Assembly: GCA_963716725.1 (NCBI GenBank)
Contig: CAVQUB010000004.1
Location: 110,277-174,276, forward strand
Direction of reading: 5' to 3'
DNA length: 64,000 nucleotides
DNA from: an uncultured delta proteobacterium
GTDB taxonomy: Bacteria > Myxococcota_A > Polyangia > Polyangiales > Polyangiaceae
The notes under the pieces were generated by a model. That model did no database searches. It had not been told where the DNA came from and saw only the letters and a list, made by a program, of their open reading frames with translations. A program made the translations under genes and the position numbers. Below are positions 1 to 51,850 of the stretch, piece by piece (position 1 is the stretch's first letter; each line of letters starts with the position of its first letter).

Positions 1-937
1 AAGCCAGAACAGCGCCTGAGCGGGAATCGCTGCGCTGGGCCAGAGGGATTTCCGCTGCAGAAGACGTCGTGGCCCAGCGAGCTGCCTTGATCCACGTGAT
101 GGACAGCGAGGCCGATGACTATGCGCTCTTGACGCAACTGATCGGGGATGACCGTCGGTTCGTGGTTCGCATGGCCCGTGATCGCGCAATCACGGATGCC
201 GAGGGGAAGGTCAGGGCAGCTGGAGCGTCAGCGGCGATGGTCGCTGCACGAAGTGTCGCGCTTTCACGCCGTAAACCTCCCATAGGCCCGAAGGACCGAC
301 GCAGGCTGGCGCGTGCAGAGCGGCTCGCCACTCTGACGGTCGGCGCACGACAGCTATCGATCACCCGCCCCTCGTAGGCGGGCAGCAAGTTTTCGAAGAG
401 CCTGCCAGGTCAACGTCATCTACGTGAACGAAGTCGACGTCCCAAAAGGCACCGAACCGGTCGAGTGGATCCTGTTCACCACGGAGCCCGTCAAAACGAA
501 GAAGCAGATCCTCCGCGTCGTTGACATCTACCGGTCGCGTTGGTTGATCGAGGAGTATTTCAAGGCGCTCAAGACCGGCTGCGACCTTGAGAAGCGCCAA
601 CTCGAGAGCTGCAGCACGCTCCTGGTGGCGCTCGGTGTTTTCGTGCCGATCGCGTGGGGTCTGCTCCGTTTGCGCGCGCTCTCCAGAACGGCGCCCGACA
701 CCCCGGCAACTCGAGTCCTCACTCCAACGCAACTCGACCTGCTCCGGCGGCACCCCAAGGCAAAGATGTCTTCGACAGCGACCGTGCGCGAAGCGCTGCT
801 CGCAGTCGCCCGCCTCGGTGGCCACCTGCGCAGCAACGGAGACCCTGGCTGGATCGTCCTCGGGCGCGGATACCATCACCTGTTGCTGCTGGAGATCGGC
901 TTCCGGCTGGGCCAGGAAAGATGCGATCAATCGTGAG
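1..937 (+). mobile_element. IS4-family (IS50/Tn5-like) element, right part; transposase disrupted by stop/frameshift at about 375-423
   Basis: Motifs PERESLRW, IHVMDSEAD, YRSRWLIEEYFKALKTGC (YREK), ARLGGHL..NGDPGW; right end AGATGCGATCAATCGTGAG (919-937) resembles the ends of the intact IS at 48526-49992. Confidence 0.9.
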
Positions 938-958
938 CTGGCGAGGGACGCCCCTTGG
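938..958 (+). repeat. Partial E1 27-bp repeat unit directly abutting the IS4 right end
   Basis: CTGGCGAGGGACGCCCCTTGG matches the array junction CTGGCGAGGGACGACCCTTGG at 20/21 positions. Confidence 0.75.
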
Positions 959-1224
959 TGGGCTTGGTGGGGGGCGTGCAAGCACCGTCCCCGCGCTCGG
1001 CGTCACGAGAGAAAGCGCACCGCATCCCCATTTTCTTCTTGACGCATTTCCAGGCGACTCGCGCTCGCACTTTGCCGGGCGTGTCACCGAAGGCGTCTCT
1101 GTTGCGCGACGAAGCTCGCCCATCGTGTTTCGCTCGAGCGACGACGCGCGACGCGTTTGGACGCGTGAAACGCGCTCACCGTGTCGGCCGCGAGGCCAAA
1201 AAACAGCGTGTTATGCCAGAAAGC

Positions 1225-2508
1225 ATGCACGCTCTCTCTTCGGTCTCCGATCGCGAGCTTCGCGAGCGCCTCTCCTCCGCCGTGAGCGCCGAGCAGCTGG
1301 CTTCTGCCGACGTCATCTTCCACCTGGCGGAGCTCGACCGCCGAAAGCTCTACCTCGAGGACGCCTGCTCCTCACTCTTCGCGTACTGCGTGGAGCGGCT
1401 CGGCTACTCCGAGGACGGCGCGAGCAAGCGAGTCCGTGTCGCCCGCTTGGTTCTGCGTTTTCCCCAGGCCCTCGACGAGCTCGCGAGCGGCGCCATCCAC
1501 CTGACCGGACTGTTCCTGCTCTCCGGGCACCTCACGGAAGACAACGCCGATCGACTCATCGCCGAGGCTCGCGGCAAGTCGAAGCGGCAGCTCGAGGAGC
1601 TGCTCGCTCGGTGGGCGCCCCGGTCCGACGTACCGGCGACCATCACCCCGAGCGGGCCCGAGCCAGCTCGAGCGGAGTTATCAACAATGTCCGGGACAGG
1701 TGGCTCCGAGCTGTCGGCGCCGCCGCCATCGGCGCACCGTCCTCGTGTCGAGCCGCTCTCGGCCACGAGCTTCCGCGTGGAATTCACCGCCAGTGCCACG
1801 CTCCGCGACAAGCTCGAACACGCCCGGAACCTCCTCAGCCACGCCGTGCCGAGCGGGGATCTCGCGACCCTGATCGAGCGAGCCATCGATCAGCTCATCG
1901 CCGTGGAGACGAAGCGCCGCGCGGGCGCGGGCCAGCCACGCAAGCGCCGTGAACCTCGCGCCGGCTCGCGCCACGTGCCGGTGGAGGTCCAGCGCGCGGT
2001 GCGGGAGCGGGATGGCAACCAGTGCACCTTCGTCGATGCCGAGGGACGCCGCTGCTCCGAGAATAGACCGTCCGGCCGGGCCGGAGGAGCGCCGTCCGCT
2101 GATGCGAACAGTCGCAAGGAGCCATCTCGAGTCAGGACGCTGAACACGAGTGGTTTCCTGACCATCGAGCACGTCGACCCGTACGCGATGGGAGGACCAA
2201 CGACAGTGGATAACTGCTGCTTGCTTTGTTCGGCTCACAACGCCCACCGGGCGCGACAGGTCTACGGCGAGCAGCACGTCCGGAAGAAGGTCTCGGAGGC
2301 TCGCGCGGGCCGGGAAGCGCGCGGTGTGTCTGCGGGGACTGCGGCCGAGCTGAAGAGCGAAGTGTTCGAGAAGGTGCTGGCGGCTCTGCTTCACTCGGGG
2401 TTCAAGCGGCACGAGGCGCGGCGAGCCCTCGAACAGGTGCGCTCGCTCGGAGTCGAGCCGCAGCTCGAGCCAGTGCTGCGCGGAGCGCTGGCGGTACTCA
2501 CTCCCTGA
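1225..2508 (+). CDS. HNH endonuclease with DUF222-like N-terminus, RHH-like middle and RuvA-C-terminal-like domain (copy 1)
   Basis: CTF..RRC, LTIEH..P...GG.T..DN...LCSAHN HNH motif; C-terminal VLAALLHSGFKRHEARRALEQV..LEPVLRGALAVL; start chosen by alignment to the paralog at 48122. Confidence 0.85.
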   Translation: MHALSSVSDRELRERLSSAVSAEQLASADVIFHLAELDRRKLYLEDACSSLFAYCVERLGYSEDGASKRVRVARLVLRFPQALDELASGAIHLTGLFLLSGHLTEDNADRLIAEARGKSKRQLEELLARWAPRSDVPATITPSGPEPARAELSTMSGTGGSELSAPPPSAHRPRVEPLSATSFRVEFTASATLRDKLEHARNLLSHAVPSGDLATLIERAIDQLIAVETKRRAGAGQPRKRREPRAGSRHVPVEVQRAVRERDGNQCTFVDAEGRRCSENRPSGRAGGAPSADANSRKEPSRVRTLNTSGFLTIEHVDPYAMGGPTTVDNCCLLCSAHNAHRARQVYGEQHVRKKVSEARAGREARGVSAGTAAELKSEVFEKVLAALLHSGFKRHEARRALEQVRSLGVEPQLEPVLRGALAVLTP

Positions 2509-2509
2509 G

Positions 2510-2586
2510 ACGGTTCGTGCACACCCCCGACAAAGGGGGGGTGCACGGGATGCCGCTTTTGGTCTTGGTAGCGGCAGCGCCGCGGG
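2510..2586 (+). repeat. ~78-bp hairpin-containing element, homologous in inverted orientation to 47803-47880
   Basis: About 80% identity by manual alignment; hairpin GTGCACACCCCC-GACAAA-GGGGGGGTGCAC. Confidence 0.7.
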
Positions 2587-2599
2587 CACGGGACGCGGC

Positions 2600-3832
2600 G
2601 CCCGACTTCGACAGGCCCATCGTGAGCAACTCGGCTGGGGGCGCATCGATCTGGAGGCGCAGGTACCTCACGACCACCCCGTGCGTGCCATCGCCGCGGT
2701 GATCGACCGCCTGGACCTCTCGAAGCTCTACGCTCGCATCGGCGCACACGACTCGAACCCCGGCGCGCCGGCCATCGACCCCAAGCTCTTGCTCGGCCTG
2801 TGGGTGTACGCCACCAGCGACGGCGAGAACAGCGCTCGGGAGATCCAGCGCCTGACCGAGTTGCACGCCGCCTGTCGGTGGCTGTGCGGCGGGGTGAGGC
2901 TCAACCACCACACGCTCAGCGACTTTCGCAGCCACAACGCCGAGGTGTTCGACGACCTGGTCACGCAGGTGCTGGCCTTGCCCATGAGCCACGACCTGGT
3001 GGACCTCATGCGTGTCGCGCAGGACGGCACGCGCGTACGGGCCAGTGCTGGGGCGAGTTCTTTCGCAAGGGCACCACGCTGGAGGCTCTGCGCCAGGAGG
3101 CTCTTCTCCCATCTGGCCGCGGTCACGGCAGACACCGAGAGCAGCTCACGCCGAGCCGCGGCGCAGAAGCGTGCAGCCCAGGATCGCCTCGACCGGCTCG
3201 ACGCGGCGCTCGCGCAGTTGCCCGGGGCCGCGAAGACCAAAAGCAAGAGCGGCGCCAAGGACCCGACCCCTCGAGTGTCGACGACCAATCCGCAGGCACG
3301 GGTGATGAAAATGGGCGACGGAGGATTCCGGCCCGCCCACAACGTGCAGCTCGCCACGACCGCCGACGACGCGCGGGTCATCGTCGGTGTCGCCGGCACC
3401 CACCGCGGCAGCGACATGGCCGAATCGACTCCGATGCTCGAGCAGATCGAGAAGCGGACTGGCGTCCGGCCACGAGAGCTCCTCGTCGATGGGGGATACG
3501 CGAAGCATGAAGCCATCGACGAAGCAGCCGCGCGCAACGTCACCGTCTACGCTCCGCTGCCCAAGCCCCGCAACGACGACGGCTCTGACCCTCATCGGCC
3601 GAGGGATACCGACAGCTCAGCCGTTGCCGCCTGGAGACACCGCATGGCCACCGACGAGGCCAAGCAGATCTACCGGCAACGGGCCGCGACCGCCGAGTCC
3701 GTCCACGCGGACGCCAAAACGCACCGCGGGCTCGACTCGCTGACCCTGCGGGGACGGGGCAAGGCTCTCGCCAGCGTGACGCTCTTCGCGCTCACGTACG
3801 ACATCCTGCGCGCCATCACGCTCGGCGTCTGA
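2600..3832 (+). mobile_element. IS1182-family transposase (start uncertain; two compensating indels near 3060 and 3105)
   Basis: DHPVR, G.PAIDPKLLLGLWVYA, SAREI, HHTLSDFR, VAQDGTRVRASAG, STTNPQARVMKMGDGGFRP, LLVDGGY, YRQRAATAE motifs. Confidence 0.85.
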
Positions 3833-3978
3833 CCCCTCCACCGCTCCGCCGCGGCCCCGTTTTCCGCGCTCGGCCCACCTGAATCGCGTCGCGCTCCACG
3901 CGCTCCCGCCCTGCGCCTGGGACTCGCCCTCGCTCGATCCCCCGGCGGCGCATGCTCAACCGATTTCTTCTCACCCGC

Positions 3979-5817
3979 TCAGGCCGGGACGGGTCGCCCG
4001 CGCGTCTCGTGATCGTCCAGGCGCTTCTCGATGCCCGCCAAGCCGTTGTTGAGCGACTCGGTGATCATCTGCACCAGCGTCGGCAGGCTGCTCTTGAGCG
4101 CCTCGTAGTAGCGCTGGCGCTCGGTTGAATGGATGATCGCGGGCGGGTGGCCGGCGCGCAGCAAGATGATGTTCATCAGCATGCGCGAGACCTTGCCGCT
4201 GTCGTTGGAGAAGGGGAAGACGCGCACCAGATCGTAGTGGACGCGGGCGGCGATCCGCAGCGGATGCTTGATCTTCTTGGGTTCGGGCCCGTTCAACCAA
4301 TCGACCACCTGACGGACCTTGTAGGCGATCTTGTCGGGCGAAGCGTACTCGTGGAAGTACAGGCGGTGCTGCGGGATGTCCTTCCGGTAACGCAGGTTCT
4401 TGATGTCACCCTCTTCTGGGTGCAGCGTCAGGTAGATCTTCTTCACCGTGTCGACGGTGATGGGCGCACGCTTCTTCTCGCCCAGGTCGCGCACGAGCGC
4501 GAGCGCCAGCCGGTGCCGCCGGATTTCGTCGACCACGGGCTGAAGGCTCGAGTCGGGCACCACGGTCTGTGAAGGATCGGTGGCCGTTCGGAGCTCTTGG
4601 TAGGTGTAGACCACGCCCTCGAGCGCGCTGTCGTGATAGACCCACGACATCTCGAGGCTCTCGGCGTACTCGTTGCGGAAGGCGTCGTCGCACTCCGCCA
4701 GGCGCTTCAGAACCAGAGCGTAGCGGTCCTCCATGGAGGCGGGCGGCGGCTCTTTCGGCGGCGGCGGCGGCGACACGACCGCTGCCGTGGGAGAGGTTCG
4801 AGCGAGCGCGGGTCGCGCCGACTGTGAGCCTTGGCGCGTCGTGCCTGCTTGGTTCGGGATCGCGTCTGGACGATAGACTCGGGTCGTCGACGCCCGCCCG
4901 GCGCCTGCTCGAAGCGCGCGCTTGGTGGCCCGTGCCACCCGTCCCTCGAGGGCGCGTCGGGCGGCTTCGCGGTCCGCCCGGAGGCGCTCCCGCTCGACCT
5001 CTTTGGCCTTGCGATAAACTTCGCGCTCCGCGTCGCGTCGCGCCCGCTCTTCATCTTTGGCGCGCCGCGCCTCTTCCCGGACGCGCTCGCGCTCGGCCTC
5101 GCGCTCCGCGCGCTCGGCCTCCTTCAGGTCGCGCGCGGCTTCCTTCACGCGCTCGCGCTCGGCCTCCCGCGCCTTGCGCTCGGCGTCGCGCTTGGCTGCC
5201 AGGGCCTTCTGCTCGCGAGCACGCTCTTTCTCGCGCTCTTTCCGCTCGCGTTCGCGCTCTTTCTGTTCGCGTTCGCGCTCTTTCTCGCGCTCACGCTTCT
5301 CGCGTTCGCGCTCCTTCTGCGCGAGCGCGCGCTCTTTCTCGCGCTCACGCTTCTCGCGTTCGCGCTCGCGGAGCGCGTTGGCCCGCTCGCGCTCTTTTTC
5401 GCGCAGCGCTCTCGCTCGGTCTTGCTCGCGCTGCCGCTTCGACGGCGGCGGGCGCTTCCCGGCCTTGGCCTTGGGCTTCAGCGTGGCCTTGGCCTTGGGC
5501 TTCAGCGTGGCCTTGGCCTTGGGCTTCGAAATAGCCTTGGGCTTGGGCTTGGGCTTCGAAATAGCCTTGGCTTTGGCTTTGGCTTTGGCCTTGGCCTTCG
5601 GCGTGGCTTTGGGCTTCGGCGTGGCTTTGGGCTTGGCCTTCGGGCGGGTCGTGGGCTTCACTTTGGATTTGGGCTTCGGCTTCGCCGTGGCCTTGGCCTT
5701 GGCCTTCGGCCGCGAGGCCGAAGGTCGCGCCTTGGCCGCCGCGCCCGCCTTCTTTTTTGTAGCGGGGCGGGGTTTCGCAGCGGACTTGTTTGGTTTTTTC
5801 GTTGTACGGGCCGGCAT
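3979..5817 (-). CDS. Fic/Doc-domain protein with histone-H1-like Lys/Ala/Pro N-terminus and E/R/K coiled coil; degenerate Fic motif
   Basis: C-terminal YHDSALEG and HYDLVRVFPFSNDSGKVSRMLMN; PKAKA repeats; (ERE/K)n region. Confidence 0.85.
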   Translation of the reverse strand: MPARTTKKPNKSAAKPRPATKKKAGAAAKARPSASRPKAKAKATAKPKPKSKVKPTTRPKAKPKATPKPKATPKAKAKAKAKAKAISKPKPKPKAISKPKAKATLKPKAKATLKPKAKAGKRPPPSKRQREQDRARALREKERERANALREREREKREREKERALAQKEREREKREREKEREREQKERERERKEREKERAREQKALAAKRDAERKAREAERERVKEAARDLKEAERAEREAERERVREEARRAKDEERARRDAEREVYRKAKEVERERLRADREAARRALEGRVARATKRALRAGAGRASTTRVYRPDAIPNQAGTTRQGSQSARPALARTSPTAAVVSPPPPPKEPPPASMEDRYALVLKRLAECDDAFRNEYAESLEMSWVYHDSALEGVVYTYQELRTATDPSQTVVPDSSLQPVVDEIRRHRLALALVRDLGEKKRAPITVDTVKKIYLTLHPEEGDIKNLRYRKDIPQHRLYFHEYASPDKIAYKVRQVVDWLNGPEPKKIKHPLRIAARVHYDLVRVFPFSNDSGKVSRMLMNIILLRAGHPPAIIHSTERQRYYEALKSSLPTLVQMITESLNNGLAGIEKRLDDHETRGRPVPA

Positions 5818-5938
5818 CGCCGAAGCCTCGGCCGCGGGCCGATCGCAGTCGCACACCGCGGAAAAAGTCGGGCTTCACGCTAGTCGCGGCGCACGCAATT
5901 CGTCAACAGCCTTCGTTTGGCCGAGGCACCGGAATCGA

Positions 5939-44706: not shown

Positions 44707-46125
44707 TCAGTACTTGCGCTTCCCCCGGCGCGGAGCCGGAAAATCGGGGAGACTGCGGTCCAGTTCGGTCCACTCCCTCAGCAGCGCTTCCGCCAGCTTC
44801 TGCTTGCCGAGGTCGTCTTGTTCTCCCGGATCGCTCACGAGGTCGAAGATCTGCGGCACCTGCTCGGTCTCGGTCACCACGATCTTCTTGTGGTTGCGGA
44901 TGAGGGCACGTCGCCGAGGGGCCTGATCGGTGTAGGGCATGTCGATCACGATGTCTCGCGCTGGGGGCCGCGCGCCTCCGATCTCGGGGACGAGGCTGGT
45001 GCCGCGAAACGATTTCGGCGCGTCCACCCCCGCCAGCTCACAGATCGTGCGTGCGAGATCGATGTGGCTCCGCCGCGCGTCGACCCGCCCTGGCTTCACC
45101 CCAGGCACGCGGATGAGGAGCGGCACGCGGGTGAGTACCTCCCACAGGGTGTAGCCGTGCTCGAAGGTGCTCTTGTGTTCGCCGAAGGCTTCGCCGTGGT
45201 CTGCGCTCACGATCACGGCCGTTCGGTGGGCCCAGGGCTGTTTGTCGATGAAGTCGAGGACTCGGCCGACTTGCGCGTCAGTGAACAGGACCTCGCCATC
45301 GTAGAGGTTCTTCAGCGATTGCCCCACGCTGCCCAGCGCCACCCCCGGCGCGACCACATCGCCGCCGCCCTTCGCAGCGCTCGGCGAGCCGCCGTCCTCG
45401 TAGGCGGAGCCCGTGAAGCGCGGCTGCCCCTCGTGCCGCGCGTAGGCAAAGTGAGGATCCATGAAGTGGGCCCAAGCGAAGAAGCGTGCGCCGGAGGCCT
45501 GCGCGCCGAGGGCTTCGATGAACATGTCCGCGAGCTTGTCGTCGACGATGTGCCCCTCGCGTGCGGGCAGGGTGGTGATCTTGGGCACGACGCGCCAGTC
45601 GTCGAAGCCCTGGCGCATGCCCGTGTCGCCCTGAAAGTACACGTGGCCGTGCGCCGCCAGCGTCTTCACGGCCGCGCCCTTCAAGACCTCGGCGAGCATC
45701 AGCGCTTCTTCGCCGAAGGCGCTGGTCGCCAGCCCGCTGCGCGGCAACTCCGAGGGGTAGCGCGCGCTCATCAGGCCGCCCAGCGACATGGACGTGTAGC
45801 TCGAGAGCGCGTAGGCGTGGGTGTAGACCACGCTCTTGTCCGCGAGGCGCGTGAGGTTTGGCGCGATGGGACGCGGGTAGCCGAGCCAGGGCATGTCTGC
45901 CCGCAGCGCGTCGACGGTGATGAGCACCACGTTCAGATCGCGCGGGAACTGGGGGACCGGCGCGGGCGGGGTGGGGAATACGGTTGGCGGCGCGGTGGGG
46001 GACGGACCCGCTGAGGGGAAGGGCCCGGCGGGCTTCGGGCGATCGTTGCAGCCGACCAGAGCGGTGGCGGCGATCAGTAAGGTCGAAGCAACGGAGGAGT
46101 TCAGCGACAACGGCGGCGATCCCAC
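44707..46125 (-). CDS. Sulfatase/alkaline-phosphatase superfamily lipoprotein
   Basis: LVGC lipobox, LITVDALRAD, SYTSMS, HFMDPH, YDGEV, SADHGE, RVPLLI. Confidence 0.9.
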   Translation of the reverse strand: MGSPPLSLNSSVASTLLIAATALVGCNDRPKPAGPFPSAGPSPTAPPTVFPTPPAPVPQFPRDLNVVLITVDALRADMPWLGYPRPIAPNLTRLADKSVVYTHAYALSSYTSMSLGGLMSARYPSELPRSGLATSAFGEEALMLAEVLKGAAVKTLAAHGHVYFQGDTGMRQGFDDWRVVPKITTLPAREGHIVDDKLADMFIEALGAQASGARFFAWAHFMDPHFAYARHEGQPRFTGSAYEDGGSPSAAKGGGDVVAPGVALGSVGQSLKNLYDGEVLFTDAQVGRVLDFIDKQPWAHRTAVIVSADHGEAFGEHKSTFEHGYTLWEVLTRVPLLIRVPGVKPGRVDARRSHIDLARTICELAGVDAPKSFRGTSLVPEIGGARPPARDIVIDMPYTDQAPRRRALIRNHKKIVVTETEQVPQIFDLVSDPGEQDDLGKQKLAEALLREWTELDRSLPDFPAPRRGKRKY

Positions 46126-46256
46126 TCGCCCAGTTTAGCCGAGGTGATCGCCGGAAGGCTGCTTCCATGAGCACGCGGAGCGCTGTTCGGGCGTTGCCGG
46201 GGAGGGTTGCAGCGGGACGGTGCGGGATGCAGGGTCTGGGCGCGGCCGTCGTCGTG

Positions 46257-46479
46257 ACCACGAGCTTGCCGCCGATCCACCACGAGCTTGCCGCCGATCC
46301 ACCACGAGCTTGCCGCCGATCCACCACGAGCTTGCCGCCGATCCACCACGAGCCTGCCGCCGATCCACCACGAGCTTGCCGCCGATCCACCATGAGCTTG
46401 CCCGCCGATCCACCACGAGCTTGCCCGCCGATCCACCACGAGCTTGCCCGCCGATCCACCATGAGCTTGCCGCCGATCC
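46257..46479 (+). repeat. 10 x 22/23-bp tandem array (ACCAYGAGCTTGCC(C)GCCGATCC)
   Basis: Counted directly: seven 22-bp and three 23-bp units, no spacers. Confidence 0.95.
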
Positions 46480-47009
46480 TCTCAGTCGTCTTCGTCCTCA
46501 CCCTCGTCTCGGGCTCCACCACGGGATGTGGCGCCAAGCCGAACCGGACGCGCGACGCTGCGGTCGTGACGGGGGCGGCCCTCGTCACGGCCGGCGTCTA
46601 CCGCGCGACGACTGGCGGGTGCTGGGCTCAGTGTTCCCCCGGCCGCTACTGCAACCGAAGGACCGGCACCTGCGAGGAGCTACCCCGCTCCGGGCCGAGG
46701 GGCGCAGCGCCTTCCGCGAGCGCAACGCCTTCCGCGAGCGCAGCGCCGCCAGGGGGCGACTGGTGGGAAACCGGCGACGGCGCGTGCCCCGCGGGCGCGA
46801 CCATCGACAGGAACCCGTCCGAGGAGGGTGACCGAGTGATCTTGTGCAGCCGCGCGGACGGCACTCCGCACGGATCTGCGACCTTCTTCTACCCGAACGG
46901 CCGGCGCGAGATGCACGGCGAGTATCGCGACGGCAAACCCATTGGCACCTGGCGGCATTGGGACGAAGACGGGACGCCCGGCAAGTCGGAGCAGCTCGGC
47001 GAGAAGTGA
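46461..47009 (+). CDS. Lipoprotein with Cys-rich segment and MORN-variant/YwqK-like repeats
   Basis: Signal ending TTGC; C..C..C..C; HGSATFFYPNG..GEYRDGKPIGTWRHWDEDG. Confidence 0.75.
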   Translation: MSLPPILSVVFVLTLVSGSTTGCGAKPNRTRDAAVVTGAALVTAGVYRATTGGCWAQCSPGRYCNRRTGTCEELPRSGPRGAAPSASATPSASAAPPGGDWWETGDGACPAGATIDRNPSEEGDRVILCSRADGTPHGSATFFYPNGRREMHGEYRDGKPIGTWRHWDEDGTPGKSEQLGEK

Positions 47010-47016
47010 GGCGCGC

Positions 47017-47100
47017 CGCCGAGCGGGCAACCGCCGAACGGGCAACCGCCGAGCGGGCAACGGCCGAGCGGGCAACCCCCGAGCGGGCAACCCCCGAGCG
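47017..47100 (+). repeat. About 5.6 x 15-bp tandem repeat (CGCCGAGCGGGCAAC)
   Basis: Directly visible. Confidence 0.9.
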
Positions 47101-47349
47101 TAGTCTTGCTCGGTAGTCGGGCCGGACGCGCGCAAGAAGCGACGCGTTCACGATCACTTACGACTGCGGCGACGGCGCTCGTCCCGCACGCACAATTTCG
47201 CAGGCCTACTTCCGGAATGCCCCCCCGCCGGCGCCGCAGCCCTGAGGGGCCTCGAGCGGAGCCCTTCCCAAGCGTTCGGCGTCGGTTCGGTGCGGCAGGC
47301 GGAAATGGAGCACGGTCGGTGGCACCCGCGCACCGAGGACGCGCTTCGT

Positions 47350-47646
47350 GACGACCCTTGGAAGTCCCTGGCGAGGGACGACCCTTGGAAGTCCCTGGCG
47401 AGGGACGACCCTTGGAAGTCCCTGGCGAGGGACGACCCTTGGAAGTCCCTGGCGAGGGACGACCCTTGGAAGTCCCTGGCGAGGGGCGACCCTTGGAAGT
47501 CCCTGGCGAGGGACGACCCTTGGAAGTCCCTGGCGAGGGGCGACCCTTGGAAGTCCCTGGCGAGGGACGACCCTTGGAAGTCCCTGGCGAGGGGCGACCC
47601 TTGGACGACCCCGGGAAGTACCCGGAGGGGCAAGTCCCCGACGGGG
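47350..47646 (+). repeat. E1 array: 9 x 27-bp units plus a 54-bp structured tail
   Basis: G[A/G]CGACCCTTGGAAGTCCCTGGCGAGG x9; total 297 bp = 11 x 27. Confidence 0.95.
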
Positions 47647-47802: not shown

Positions 47803-47880
47803 CCCGCGACGCTGCCGCTGCCAAGCCCACCAACGGCAATCCGTGCACGACCCGTTTGTCAGGGGGTGTGCAAGCACCGT
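47803..47880 (-). repeat. ~78-bp element homologous to 2510-2586
   Basis: Manual alignment; ends in GGGGGTGTGCAAGCACCGT, also seen at 970-988. Confidence 0.7.
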
Positions 47881-48525
47881 GGTTCTGGCGCACGCTTCAG
47901 CCGGCTGCGAATCGAAAAGAACGCATCTCGTACGATTTCGACACGTTTCTCGACGCACGACGCACGCGAGTGACGCGTCGTTCGAAACTTGCCGCGTGCG
48001 AGCGCGAGGACGATCCACGACGGCGCTCTGGCTCCCGGATGACTTTCGACGCGTCGAGCTGCGCGTTCGTTGCTCTCGGTGGCAGCTGCGAGGCCGAAAA
48101 TCCTCGTGGTATGCCGGAGACATGTTCGCGCTCGACGCTCTCGAGAACCAGGCTCTCCTCGCGCGTTTGCCCAGCCTTCGGGCTCTCGAACGCGAAGCCA
48201 CCGCCGAGCTCATCGCGTACCTCTGCGAGCTCGACCGCCGCCGCTTGTACACAGCGGTGGCTTGCTCGTCGCTCTCCTCGTATTGCACCGAGCGGCTCGG
48301 CTACTCCGAGAACGAGGCCCAGGTGCGGGTCGGGGTCGCTCGACTTTGCCAGCGTCTGCCCCAGGCCCTCGACGAGCTCCGGAGCGGGCGAATCCACCTG
48401 ACCGGCCTGTTCCTCCTGTCGGGGCGGCTGACCTCGGAGAACGCCGATGCCCTGCTCGCCGAAGCTCGGGGCAAGTCTCGGCGTGACCTCGAGTGTTTGC
48501 TGGCCCGCTGGTTCCACCCCTTCGG

Positions 48526-49992
48526 CTCATGATCAAACACATCTCATTGCGAGCGGACGGCGCGTGTGATCTACGGGAGAAATGCCGGCAACAGAATGGT
48601 TAGGGCGGTCGATTTCGGACGAGTTCGAGGGCTCTCAGCTCGGCGATAAGCGGCGCAGTGACAGGCTCGGTTGGCTCGCTGAGAAACTGATGGCGGCGCC
48701 CGGTGTTGGGTTTCCGCAGGCTGTCGACACTCCGTCCGAGCTTGAGGGAGTCTACCGATTCCTGCGCAACGAGCAGTTCGACGCGGAGCAGATCCTCGAC
48801 CCGCACCTGTCGGCGACGGTGGAGCGTGTGAGTTCCGCTGGCCTGTGTATCGTCGCGCACGATACGACCGAAGTATCGCTCGGCGGCGCCAGTCGGCGAG
48901 CTGGGTTGGGCGTCACGTCCGGCGGCAGCCAGGGGTTTCTCGCACACGTGGCGCTGGCCGTGCTTCCCGGCGAGGAGCGAGTGCCACTCGGAGTTCTGGG
49001 TCTACAGCGACACGTCCGCCTCGTACACAAGGGTGGACGCGGGCGCCGCCGGTCTGTCAGTCGGAGAGACCCCGAGCGCGAATCACTGCGCTGGCCGGCC
49101 ATGCTCGAGGCCGTCCATGCACGCTGCCCCGGCAGCGCGCTCATTCACGTGATGGACCGCGAAGCGGACATTTTCGAGGTCCTGGCGAAGGCGCAGGAAC
49201 TCGGTGCGCGCTACGTCATCCGTTCGGCTCACGACCGAGTAACTGAGGAAATAGGCATCTGCTTGCGCAGTGCAATCTCAACGCTCGAACCGCAGTTTTT
49301 TCGCACGATCTCGGTGTCATCGAGGAAACCGAGCAGTCGCGCGCATGCTGCAAAAGAGCACCCGTCTCGCAACGCCCGGAGCGCGGAGGTCGCCGTGGCA
49401 GGCAAACGTTTGACTGTGCTGCGCCCCCGCAACACTCGACATGAGACGCGCAGCATCGAACTCAACGTGGTTCGAGTCTGGGAACTCCAACCACCAGAAG
49501 GCGAGCCGTCGGTCGAGTGGGTGCTGCTCACTACCGAACCCATTGACACCGTCGCCGAACTCGCGACCGTCGTGGACTGTTACCGCAGTCGGTGGGTGAT
49601 CGAAGAGTTCTTCAAGGCACTCAAGCAAGGGTGTTCTCTCGAGAAACGACAGCTCGAGTCGTATCAGGCACTGAGCAACGCGCTCGCCGTGTTCCTGCCC
49701 ATCGCCTGGCGCCTGTTGCTCATGCGCTCGTTAGCCCGCGTCGCACCCGAGCAACCGGCAACAACGATCCTGAGTGAGCCCCAGTTGCTCCTCATAAAGT
49801 TCAAGCTCCGCCTCCCGGCCGTCCCGCAGACCATTGAGCAAGCGCTATTCGCTGTCGCGCGACTCGGCGGGCATCTGAAGAACAACGGCGCACCCGGGTG
49901 GCAAACGTTAGGACGGGGCTACCAGAAGCTCCTCGACTACGAGATCGGCTTCCGAGCTGCCCGGTCCCAGATGGGATCCGATCAATCATGAG
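48526..49992 (+). mobile_element. Complete IS4-family element, 1467 bp, 8-bp TSD CCCTTCGG
   Basis: Ends CTCATGAT...ATCATGAG; CCCTTCGG at 48518-48525 and 49993-50000. Confidence 0.95.
48582..49991 (+). CDS. IS4-family transposase (IS50/Tn5-like)
   Basis: LGDKRR, YRFLRN, HDTT, MDREAD, YRSRWVIEEFFKALK. Confidence 0.95.
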   Translation: MPATEWLGRSISDEFEGSQLGDKRRSDRLGWLAEKLMAAPGVGFPQAVDTPSELEGVYRFLRNEQFDAEQILDPHLSATVERVSSAGLCIVAHDTTEVSLGGASRRAGLGVTSGGSQGFLAHVALAVLPGEERVPLGVLGLQRHVRLVHKGGRGRRRSVSRRDPERESLRWPAMLEAVHARCPGSALIHVMDREADIFEVLAKAQELGARYVIRSAHDRVTEEIGICLRSAISTLEPQFFRTISVSSRKPSSRAHAAKEHPSRNARSAEVAVAGKRLTVLRPRNTRHETRSIELNVVRVWELQPPEGEPSVEWVLLTTEPIDTVAELATVVDCYRSRWVIEEFFKALKQGCSLEKRQLESYQALSNALAVFLPIAWRLLLMRSLARVAPEQPATTILSEPQLLLIKFKLRLPAVPQTIEQALFAVARLGGHLKNNGAPGWQTLGRGYQKLLDYEIGFRAARSQMGSDQS

Positions 49993-51017
49993 CCCTTCGG
50001 GTGTCACGAAGCGCGTCCAAGGTCGGACGTGCTGCCGAGCGTGACGCCCTTGCCCGGCTGCCCGGCGACCATGCTCGAGCATGGTCCTTCCGCCGCGGCG
50101 CCCGCCGCGTGCACGGAGCCCGAGCCCGCGCCGGCTCCGAAGCCCCGCGTGCAGCCGCTCTCCGCCTCCAGCTACCGGGTCGAATTCACCGCGAGCGCCG
50201 CGCTCCACGACAAGCTCGTGAAGGCCCAGAACCTCCTGGGCCACGCCATCCCCAGCGGGGATCTCGCCGCGCTGTTCGAGCGCGCCATCGAGGCGCTGCT
50301 CGAGGCCGAGACGAAGCGCCGCTTCGGCGCGGGCAAGCCGCGTAAGCGGCGCGCGCTCGAGCCAGGCTCACGGCACATCCCCGTGGAGGTCGCTCGCGTC
50401 GTCTGGGAGCGGGACGGCGGGCAGTGCACTTACCTCGACGACGAGGGGCGGCGCTGCTCGGAGCAGCGCTTCGTCACCCTCGAGCACATCGAGCCGCACG
50501 CGCTCGGCGGTCCGGCCACCGTGGAGAACCTCTGTCTCCTTTGTTCATCGCACAATGCCCTGCGCGCACGACAGGTCTTCGGCGAAGATCAGATCCGGAA
50601 GAAGATCGCTGAAGCGACCGAGAAGAAGCAAGGTCCGGACACGCCGAGGGACGACCCTTGGAAGTCCCTGGCGAGGGGCGACCCTTGGACGACCCTGGGA
50701 AGTGCCCGGAGGGGCAAGTCCCAGAAGTGGGACGAGAGCTCAGAGAAGATCCAGGCCGCGCTGGTACGACTCGGCTTTCGCACGGCGAAGGCTCGCCGCG
50801 CGGTCGAGCAAGCGCGCGCTCGAGGCGTCGAGCCCGGGCTCGAGCCGCTCCTCAGGGCGGCGCTCGCCGAGCTCACCCCCACCGTGTCGCCTGCGCGCTG
50901 CTGAGGGAGCGCGGGTGTCCCCGGAGCCCCTGGTGCAGGCGAAGACCCGACTCGCCGGCGCGGCCTCCCCGACATCGGGCCGTAACAGAAAGGTGCCGGC
51001 GCCAAGAGCGTTACCCG

Positions 51018-51480
51018 CAGACCGTGGTGCGCGTCAAGACGGTGGTCACCGACGAGGCGGGGCGTGTCCTCAGGGCTGAAGACCGCTACCTGATCTCGAG
51101 CCTGCGCAAAGATGCCCTCACCGCGACGCAATGGCAGACGCTCGTGCGCTTGCGCTGGGGCGTGGAAACCAACCACCAGATCCTCGACCACGCCTTAGAT
51201 CATCGACCACGCCTTCGAAGAGGACGACCCTTGGGAGTCCCTGGCGAGGGGCGATCACCCCTGGATCGAGCAGAACCCACGCGGCATGCTCGTCGTCGCG
51301 ATCCTGCGCCGCATCGTCTACACGCTGCTCGCGCTCTTCCGCGGCGTTGCGCAGCGCTCCGACGAGCGGCGCGGCGTCCCTTGGAAGCGCCTGCTCGAAG
51401 AGGTGTACCTCGCGCTGCTCCGCGTCACGGACGAGCTGCTCCGCAGTTTGCGCTTCCGCTCGTTGCCACTCCTGTCGTGA
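51018..51480 (+). pseudogene. ISAs1-family transposase C-terminal remnant
   Basis: RYLISSL, R.RWGVE..HQILD..FEED; broken by a 19-bp tandem duplication (51178-51215); carries an E1 insert. Confidence 0.75.
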
Positions 51481-51850
51481 GCGGAAGGCCCTGATCCAAC
51501 GAGGGCTGACGCCCGCGACCTTCCTCACCCACCGGCGCCGACGCCGAACGCAGCAAAGACCGTGCGCCAGCGCGGTCGGCGCTGCGCTTGGGTCGAACGC
51601 CGGCCGCTCCCCCGGCGGCAGCGCACGGACCTCGCAGGCCCGCAGCATGCCGCTGGTCGTCGGGATCACCGATCAAGAGTGCGGCCGAGCGGGCAGCTCG
51701 ACCCGTCCGCGCCGCTCGCGCTACGCTGGAACCCCGAACATGAGCGATCCGGTCCCAGTCGACGAGCGCCGAGACGCGTTGGGCGTTGGTCCGCATGGCC
51801 CCGGCCTAGGTTCGAAGCGGTACCGCCGCTTGCACTCCGCTGAGTAACTC

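Follow-up and report, generated by a model that had tools for sequence, protein, structure and literature searches.

Layout of the cassette locus

The DNA analyzed here, referred to as the window, is a 64,000-nt stretch of contig CAVQUB010000004.1 from an uncultured delta proteobacterium of the Polyangiaceae. Near its left edge (970–2528) lies a cassette with one gene for a predicted HNH nuclease (copy 1), and a related gene (copy 2) lies at 48122–50904. Coordinates are positions in the window unless prefixed by a contig code (C4:) or a locus code (L007:). The cassette consists of a leader of ~240 nt, a single open reading frame (ORF) encoding a helix-turn-helix-like N-domain, an HNH domain and a RuvA domain III, and hairpin-bearing inverted ends. 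Copy 1 is internal to a 3.45-kb IS1182-family element, with the left terminal repeat on one side of it and the transposase gene on the other. An earlier interpretation made from the letters alone (the sequence-only reading) had described a transposase-free mobile unit with two paralogous genes.

The 19-nt motif, the pre-ATG box and the inverted motif past the copy 1 stop codon that were claimed there were all located. The motif GGGGGYGTGCAAGCACCGT matches at 970–988 (+) and 47862–47880 (+) and inverted at 2510–2528 with 2/19 mismatches; these three matches in the window compare with 0.08 expected, and at least three were obtained in 0/100 shuffles. It ends 237 nt before the ATG of copy 1 and 242 nt before that of copy 2, and the box GAGGCC.AAAA....CGTG.TATGCC is found at 1192–1217 (copy 1) and 48090–48115 (copy 2).

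Inverted ends of the cassette exist as had been described and are longer than the earlier account gave, ~65–85 nt each, with a hairpin in each end whose inner arm is the 19-nt motif. The right end of copy 1 (2509–2590, +) contains the inverted motif (2510–2528), a 12-bp hairpin (2516–2547) and an outer arm with a second small hairpin; its DNA fold has z = −3.68, and an equally good fold was found in 1/200 shuffles. Its inverted counterpart is the left end of the copy 2 cassette (47809–47880, +), made up of outer arm, hairpin and motif (47862–47880). The left end of copy 1 is a remnant (938–988, +) comprising an E1-derived loop remnant (938–969) and the inner motif (970–988), E1 being a 27-bp repeat unit. 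In the other six copies the outer arm, 2–7 E1 units and the 19-nt motif are contiguous. These units expanded within the left-hairpin loop in the lineage of copy 1, whose left hairpin was disrupted first by the E1 array and afterwards by insertion of an IS4/Tn5-like element. That insertion sequence (IS), the right part of which occupies 1–937 (+) and is cut by the window edge, carries Pfam DDE_Tnp_1 and Dimer_Tnp_Tn5 matches on ORF 424–936. It landed in the E1 array and is not part of the cassette; its end GATCAATCGTGAG at 925–937 resembles the end of a second IS4 element at 48526–49992.

Among relatives, the outer part of the inverted ends was found at −345..−302 and +46..+74 in 6/7 G003 copies tested. 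In the sublineages G006 and G008, which are more distant, the ends were found at 0/11 loci, and they were not seen in acidobacterial flanks.

Copy 1 protein

The copy 1 gene (1225–2508, +) is an intact ORF of 427 aa with a further in-frame ATG at 1213. PF01844 (HNH) matches its product at 21.4 bits, which equals the Pfam cut-off, copy 2 at 21.7 bits, and 33/41 relatives. The HNH residues EH, N and CxxHN are present; H316, C267 and C277 are invariant across the 41 relatives, and N330, C335, H338 and N339 are found in at least 90% of them. By sequence and fold, including HNH matches among solved structures, the protein falls within the HNH endonuclease superfamily and is a predicted nuclease, as the sequence-only reading had it.

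An AlphaFold model of copy 1 (mean predicted local distance difference test score, pLDDT, 82.6) was used for domain assignment with VIA-align; Foldseek with the whole model against the PDB returned no match at E ≤ 0.001. A helical N-domain (aa 9–130) is best matched by ParB/KorB/Spo0J DNA-binding domains (Z 6–7) and is followed by a disordered linker (aa 146–169), a small beta + helix domain (aa 174–233; best match MazE6 N-domain, Z 5.1), the HNH domain (aa 253–347; best matches McrA, Cap5, IscB and ZRANB3 HNH domains, Z 5.4–6.1) and a three-helix C-terminal domain (aa 373–425), whose four best matches are all RuvA domain III (Z 8.4, 7.7, 7.5 and 7.3). For the earlier label "ribbon-helix-helix-like" there is a single match, at Z 5.1, and the label is not supported. 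Within the HNH domain lies an in-frame, sublineage-specific insertion of 29 aa (2068–2154, +; aa 282–310), disordered in the model (pLDDT <50), that is missing from the other 40 rows of alignment A2 and occurs in copies of G002 (locus L012) and G003.

The description "DUF222-like" was likewise not sustained. PF02720 (DUF222) has no match in copy 1, and the N-terminal part of copy 2 gives E = 0.0017 and 18.1 bits against a cut-off of 24.4. One of 41 relatives (E = 0.0034) and 2/100 family representatives (best 23.5 bits) match, all below threshold, and the matches in representatives cover just model positions 2–89 of 306. A RuvC-like domain was absent in Pfam, NCBIfam and structure-model comparisons. 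With PADLOC, copy 1 gave a weak match to mREase_IV (type IV restriction; E = 0.0029) and the protein of family B, to which copy 2 belongs, gave none.

RuvA domain III tail

The C-terminus is a true homolog of RuvA domain III, in agreement with the RuvA_C-like call of the sequence-only reading. PF07499 (RuvA_C) scores 20.7 bits in copy 1 and 23.2 bits in copy 2, both below the cut-off of 24, and matches 28/41 relatives (best E = 1.7e-10). When the family profile was compared with the PDB, all ten best matches were RuvA (best E = 7.7e-4). The four top VIA-align superpositions of the tail on RuvA domain III structures (Z 8.4–7.3) have a root-mean-square deviation of 1.5–1.9 Å over 48–50 residues, the best (Z 8.4) giving 1.5 Å over 50 aa. 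The tail is also 41% identical over 51 aa to the C-terminus of the host's own RuvA (E = 4e-6).

Residues 368–427 were co-folded with host RuvB 1–230, a comparison proposed with the sequence-only reading. The score was 0.77 compared with 0.51 for the best control, at a mark reached by 58/80 solved complexes and 2/110 mismatched pairs; contacts agreed by at least 98% between runs and the partner pLDDT was at least 85. The predicted interface places residues 383–393 and 414–426 against the RuvB N-domain. Because RuvA–RuvB complexes have already been solved, the score may reflect likeness, and it indicates likeness rather than proven binding.

The IS1182-family carrier of copy 1

The motif and its inverted copy occur genome-wide as seven pairs spaced 1,539–1,540 bp apart, on contigs C2, C3, C21, C33, C4, C5 and C6, and an eighth, disrupted copy is on C13. 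They lie within a larger repeated unit of ~3.45 kb, in which a left arm of ~228 nt is followed by the cassette and then by a DDE transposase gene; the flanks of the unit differ among all copies. In the window the unit covers 963–3981 and ends at 3978 before the duplicated target; its left arm is outside the window, beyond the IS4 element, at C4:109433–109730. The terminal inverted repeats GAGCCTGTGAAAGAATC and GATTTCTTCTCACCCTC are imperfect and complementary at 12/17 positions. The trinucleotide TCA stands on both sides in 6/6 copies with both junctions read (a 3-bp target duplication); in the window, the right terminal inverted repeat is at 3962–3978 and the duplicated TCA at 3979–3981 (+). 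In sister genomes the two sequences that flank the C2 copy lie next to each other, 16–162 nt apart in five of six and 560 nt apart in the remaining one, and the insertion site there has just one TCA.

The transposase gene at 2593–3832 (+; Pfam DUF772 and DDE_Tnp_1_6) is 5′-truncated in the window copy, where alignment of the copies revealed a 53-bp deletion at 2590/2593 that took the start codon. Intact copies begin ~100 nt past the HNH stop codon, and an intact transposase of 424 aa (L007:2920–4191) matches NF033551 at 326.5 bits (cut-off 270). The carrier of copy 1 is thus an IS1182-family insertion sequence, identified by its family transposase, terminal repeats, target duplication and insertion polymorphism, and its DDE transposase accounts for the eight genomic copies. 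In these copies (family A in genome G000) the HNH gene is intact in 7/8 and the transposase in 3/8.

Copy counts and flank alignments that had been suggested as a check gave eight copies, an empty site in sister species, and borders that are those of the 3.45-kb element and not of the 1.56-kb cassette. The genes are insertions with an empty site in sister genomes and not syntenic, vertically inherited genes, and the other copies carry the upstream motif. A transposase-free mobile unit is not what either window copy represents, copy 1 being internal to this IS1182-family element and copy 2 belonging to a second IS1182 lineage.

The TCA at 3979–3981 is the stop codon of a neighboring Fic-domain gene, at which the element inserted exactly. 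This ORF (3979–5856, −) encodes 625 aa, with a long N-terminal half that is Lys/Ala/Pro-rich and has Arg/Glu repeats, and a C-terminal Fic domain (PF02661, E = 6.3e-11).

Copy 2 and family B

Two paralogs are present, as the sequence-only reading stated; copy 1 is an intact gene and copy 2 (48122–50904) is not one ORF, its gene being split by an IS4-family element. The N-terminal part (48122–48525, +), which belongs to the second lineage (family B), is followed by the IS4-family insertion sequence (48526–49992, +; NF033590, 295.5 bits, cut-off 160) and the C-terminal part with HNH and RuvA_C domains (49993–50904, +). The 8-bp duplication CCCTTCGG flanks the IS4-family element at 48518–48525 and 49993–50000. 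A 78-nt E1-derived piece lies in frame at 50648–50725 and corresponds to a homology gap relative to the copies on C15.

Other members of family B are on C15 (two), C6 and C11. The HNH proteins of copies 1 and 2 share 54% identity, and in the C15 and C6 copies the HNH gene is followed by a truncated IS1182-type transposase 41–44% identical to the first one. The family B unit has clear terminal repeats containing GATCTGTCGAA and lacks the right inverted end; in the window copy both ends of the element are gone, as is what was left of the transposase. Copy 2 represents, in decayed form, a second IS1182 lineage with the same arrangement as copy 1. Downstream of copy 2, at the place where a continuation of the family B element would be expected, 50974–51500 resembles the C-terminus of an ISAs1-type transposase, with no Pfam match at E ≤ 1e-5. 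The two IS4/Tn5-like copies (NF033590) of the window, 1–937 and 48526–49992, are each inserted into an HNH cassette, the first within the E1 array of the left hairpin and the second within the ORF.

The cassette as an independent module

In the sister genome G002 the same gene (66% identity) was found in a 2.9–3.4-kb unit with an ISAs1-family transposase (NF033564, 91.2 bits, cut-off 70), ISAs1-type ends CAGTCCCGCTCGGT / CAGTCTCGATCGGT and duplications of ~10 bp. Nucleotide homology between the IS1182-borne and ISAs1-borne units is confined to inverted end, leader, ORF and inverted end, with the left arms and transposases outside it. Contigs from four RNA libraries of three studies contain the same core at 90–99% identity; outside 969 and 2536 they have other flanking sequences than the window, and these two flanks are reverse complements of each other. 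These contigs span leader, ORF and transposase, and cannot show transcript ends or exclude DNA carry-over. Together with the G003 copies, these units establish the cassette with its conserved leader and inverted ends, as the sequence-only reading had outlined it, as a real, recurring module.

All 11 IS1182-type transposase loci in G000 have the HNH gene directly upstream, as do at least 15/18 ISAs1-type loci in G002, and in all three carrier lineages the cassette has the same position and orientation, just upstream of the transposase gene. In a quick tree search with Shimodaira–Hasegawa-like approximate likelihood-ratio (SH-aLRT) support only, IS1182-A-borne genes and the ISAs1-borne clade came out as sister groups (support 99), to the exclusion of the IS1182-B-borne gene. 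From this topology and the context it follows that the module changed carrier at least once, from IS1182-type to ISAs1-type or the reverse. The cassette is thus a discrete module in three carrier lineages from two IS families, and also on its own; context and tree show that it predates its carriers, is more widely distributed than they are and has undergone at least one carrier change.

Cassette-free carriers were sought in relatives, and the candidates (L126, L127, L128 and L129) were only deletion or truncated forms or were too distant to define an insertion point. L126 has an ISAs1 transposase 70% identical and no cassette sequence. No target duplication or clean empty site for the cassette alone was found, and in G000 no cassette copy lies outside a carrier element. 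An empty site for a carrier-free acidobacterial copy was sought in a sister genome and not found; synteny with that genome stops 170 nt after recA, before the cassette, and so a clean comparison was not obtained.

L127 and L129 (from G002 and G004) are ISAs1-type elements without the HNH ORF. In L127 the left cassette end and leader are kept and joined to the transposase start, and in L129 half of the right cassette end directly abuts the IS end; the two elements may have lost the cassette, or may show the state before its insertion.

Conserved leader

The leader of copy 1 (989–1224, +) contains a TTGACG box at 1039–1044 and a TGTTATGCC box at 1209–1217, and that of copy 2 (47881–48121, +) contains a TGGTATGCC box at 48107–48115. 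Across the range from Myxococcota to Acidobacteriota, the unit includes the ~240 nt preceding the ATG, with two boxes, T(T/C)GAC(A/G) preceded by a T-rich stretch and TGnTA(T/C)(A/G), set 157–170 nt apart in 42/65 loci from several phyla (169–170 nt in 32 of the 42). The sequence between them is variable, with many local hairpins. The boxes resemble a −35 element and an extended −10 element; they are not one promoter because the spacing is far too large.

A scan of 900–2750 for sigma-70 promoters and terminators returned no promoter and a single terminator-like site, which lies within the ORF; these counts did not exceed those of shuffles. Rfam on window positions 1–4200 at E ≤ 1 returned only an unrelated, sub-threshold 17-nt ALIL match. 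RNAalifold on leader alignments of 19 and 37 sequences gave no consensus structure, subgroup folds disagreed, and inspection by eye for base pairing between the two boxes revealed no covariation. Neither an Rfam family nor a consensus fold supports the structured leader RNA suggested earlier. The leader is a strongly conserved feature across phyla, with two invariant boxes at a distance of 164–170 nt, that fits neither a single promoter nor an Rfam family.

Distribution and selection

Tens of tblastn pieces of the HNH gene were obtained in each of six sister genomes, and 17/41 genomes searched gave a match, the distribution being patchy beyond the sisters. A recognizable downstream transposase was present in just 4 of 39 further loci sampled in relatives; several loci are internal-deletion derivatives that kept the HNH gene, because the ISAs1 right end persists 270–440 bp past the stop codon. 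In other Myxococcota, Acidobacteriota, Gemmatimonadota, Eisenbacteria and Oligoflexales (21 loci examined), gene and leader lie between housekeeping genes (recA, tRNA synthetases, kinases and others) with no transposase nearby in nearly all, the exception being L063, which has a Mutator-family gene ~1 kb away. Two Oligoflexales homologs (L077 and L078) are single-copy and syntenic. Acidobacterial copies are 70–80% identical to each other, and 4/9 are broken.

The ratio of nonsynonymous to synonymous substitution rates (dN/dS) was 0.20–0.52 in 14/14 pairs, within-genome paralogs included, and an open frame of at least 360 aa is present in 35/37 copies sampled from relatives. The HNH gene is under purifying selection while neighboring transposases decay. 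A profile search retrieved 32,004 clusters at 50% identity at E ≤ 0.001, 19,032 at E ≤ 1e-10 and 8,337 at E ≤ 1e-30. When 100 representatives were compared with Pfam (E ≤ 0.001), 51 had no match, 33 matched HNH, 19 RuvA_C and 2 DUF222 (below cut-off).

Six acidobacterial copies directly adjoin paralogous Ser/Thr kinase-PD40 genes. In L061, L069 and L075 the kinase gene lies downstream of the HNH copy, in L064, L065 and L067 upstream of it. The genome is rich in kinases, and this adjacency may be accidental or may reflect a preferred target.

Comparison with known systems

REP13E12 elements are dispersed DUF222-HNH repeat genes of actinobacteria (PF02720 + PF01844) that have been catalogued for decades and whose mobility mechanism has not been established. 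The cassette genes resemble them as dispersed multicopy genes of ~400–450 aa near insertion sequences, with a helical N-domain and a C-terminal HNH domain, and the first ~90 residues of cassette proteins give sub-threshold PF02720 matches. REP13E12 has been listed among repeats near insertion sequences (PMC10589994). The cassette family differs in its RuvA domain III tail, its two-box leader at fixed spacing, its hairpin-bearing inverted ends and its hosts (Myxococcota, Acidobacteriota and others), and PF02720 never reaches the cut-off, with only the first third of the model matched. Membership in DUF222/REP13E12 is not supported, PF02720 scores being below the gathering score in all proteins tested.

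IscB with its omega (HEARO) RNA is similar in having an HNH gene after a conserved non-coding region in a mobile element, and the HNH domains are alike (Z 5.4–5.9; NF040563, E = 5.7e-6 over the HNH part only). The cassette protein differs in lacking a RuvC domain, and there was no Rfam match in 1–4200 and no supported RNA fold. Identity as an IscB/HEARO RNA-guided nuclease was ruled out by the missing RuvC domain and omega RNA match.

Free-standing HNH homing endonuclease genes of phages and introns are likewise single selfish HNH genes that spread between homologous sequences, selected while active and then decaying. The proposed homes of the cassette are instead insertion sequences and intergenic chromosomal sites, the unit combines inverted ends with a long leader and a domain of a recombination protein, and its cleavage and homing are proposals. 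The carriers share family-typical transposases, terminal inverted repeats and target duplications with other IS1182/ISAs1 insertion sequences that hold passenger genes; they differ in that one passenger module sits at the same internal position in two unrelated IS families and is kept after transposase deletion. The tail matches RuvA domain III, which contacts RuvB in the RuvAB motor, in fold and sequence, whereas the cassette protein is without domains I and II (junction binding, tetramer) and has domain III fused to a nuclease. No description of an HNH–RuvA domain III cassette architecture was found in the literature, subscription-only papers and ISfinder records being outside the search.

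Interpretation

We propose, at a roughly even chance of being right, that 970–2528 is a functional selfish HNH-nuclease gene cassette that hitchhikes as cargo in insertion sequences and spreads itself by homing-like copying. The nuclease would bind and cut at or near its own hairpin ends or a cassette-free target, and the break would be repaired by homologous recombination from a cassette-bearing copy, a homing-like gene conversion. In the Myxococcota branch, the RuvA domain III tail might recruit host RuvB for branch migration through the heterology. Multicopy insertion sequences would provide numerous homologous sites at which landing does no harm, and would carry the cassette along at no cost.

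Several observations weigh against this proposal. The analysis found no site of cleavage, no target and no allele of the same insertion sequence without the cassette, and presence of the HNH gene at 11/11 G000 and at least 15/18 G002 transposase loci is also explained by simple descent. In the identity profile among copies, mosaics reflect general recombination between element copies, with borders that are not at the cassette ends. The HNH domain of copy 1 is interrupted by the 29-aa insertion. Acidobacterial relatives are without the RuvA tail, and RuvB recruitment therefore cannot be the core mechanism. The tree behind the carrier change is from a quick search with SH-aLRT support only. To our knowledge, classical free-standing homing endonuclease genes have neither inverted ends nor a conserved leader of 240 nt.

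The main rival, which we consider unlikely, is that the HNH protein is a working accessory subunit of its carrier insertion sequences, the two genes forming one element. The protein might cleave the second strand at the ends, act on the donor site, or load RuvB for donor-gap repair from the sister copy, so that cut-and-paste would act like copy-and-paste and the cassette form would just reflect gene acquisition. This would suit the constant position and orientation upstream of the transposase in three carrier lineages, the presence of the gene at every G000 transposase locus of these types and the purifying selection on it, and the tail and its predicted pairing with RuvB (0.77 vs 0.51) would fit a repair role. 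Against it, IS1182 and ISAs1 relatives without the HNH gene exist (L126, L035), the gene stands alone and far from transposases at most loci of other phyla, and it outlives the transposase in many copies; nor do we know of DDE enzymes of the IS1182 and ISAs1 families that need a second nuclease. The sequence-only reading pointed to another explanation, in which the HNH protein is the recombinase of a DDE-free transposon bounded by inverted repeats, nicking the hairpin ends and moving the 1.56-kb cassette, with insertion sequences as frequent landing sites. This is improbable for the locus. Hairpin-bearing inverted ends exactly at the borders of the conserved core, the occurrence of that core between other outer repeats in contigs from RNA libraries, arrays of multiple copies without transposases in Acidobacteriota, at least one carrier change and the very large family speak for it, but every G000 cassette copy lies in a carrier element, neither a target duplication nor a clean empty site of the cassette alone turned up, the inverted ends were not found at G006 and G008 loci (0/11) or seen in acidobacterial flanks, the right one is lacking in family B, and we know of no HNH-only transposase. 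Such a transposon is possible for the family, and is not what multiplied the copies in the window. A broader version, in which the helix-turn-helix–HNH(–RuvA domain III) protein would be the recombinase of a new DDE-free class of mobile cassettes, is quite unlikely. Such a protein would nick the hairpin-bearing inverted ends and move or copy itself with host RuvB recruited by a captured RuvA domain III, as a hyperparasite in the 5′ regions of unrelated insertion sequences, and the leader with its two boxes 164–170 nt apart would be a structured nucleic-acid cofactor or switch.

A host-useful cargo gene, such as a McrA-like restriction nuclease or a regulator picked up by insertion sequences and with no role in mobility, would agree with McrA as the nearest solved HNH structure, with the weak PADLOC match to type IV restriction enzymes (E = 0.0029) and with the syntenic single-copy homologs in two Oligoflexales genomes (L077, L078). 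We hold it very improbable given tens of copies per genome in 6/6 sister genomes, many pseudogenes (4/9 acidobacterial copies broken), a conserved leader and inverted ends that travel with the gene, and no defence-system neighbors seen at the loci examined.

The cassettes belong to a very large and unstudied family of nuclease genes that are apparently selfish, and this locus provides an unusually clean anatomy for dispersed HNH repeat genes, with defined ends, selection and a candidate host partner in RuvB. If the nuclease drives its own spread, the cassette would be parasitic on transposons and would give insertion sequences a new way to acquire and swap cargo; if it is an accessory subunit, the carriers would be a new kind of insertion sequence with two components, in which DDE transposition is linked to branch migration by the host. 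For annotation, cassette genes are currently labeled just "HNH endonuclease" or "hypothetical", and half of the relatives have no Pfam match at all.

E1 and other repeats

E1 units upstream of both HNH copies had been noted before and are there, but the repeat is dispersed over the whole genome: G000 has 62 copies in 31 arrays, and 20 of the arrays are away from HNH genes. Several arrays form facing inverted pairs 100–250 bp apart that resemble small miniature inverted-repeat transposable elements. In the window, E1 is found at 47351–47593, 50648–50725 and 51224–51250; the first of these is an array of nine 27-bp units upstream of copy 2 (+; C4:157627–157869). Several more tandem-repeat arrays upstream of copy 2, at 46100–47160, give repeated peptides in all ORF frames.

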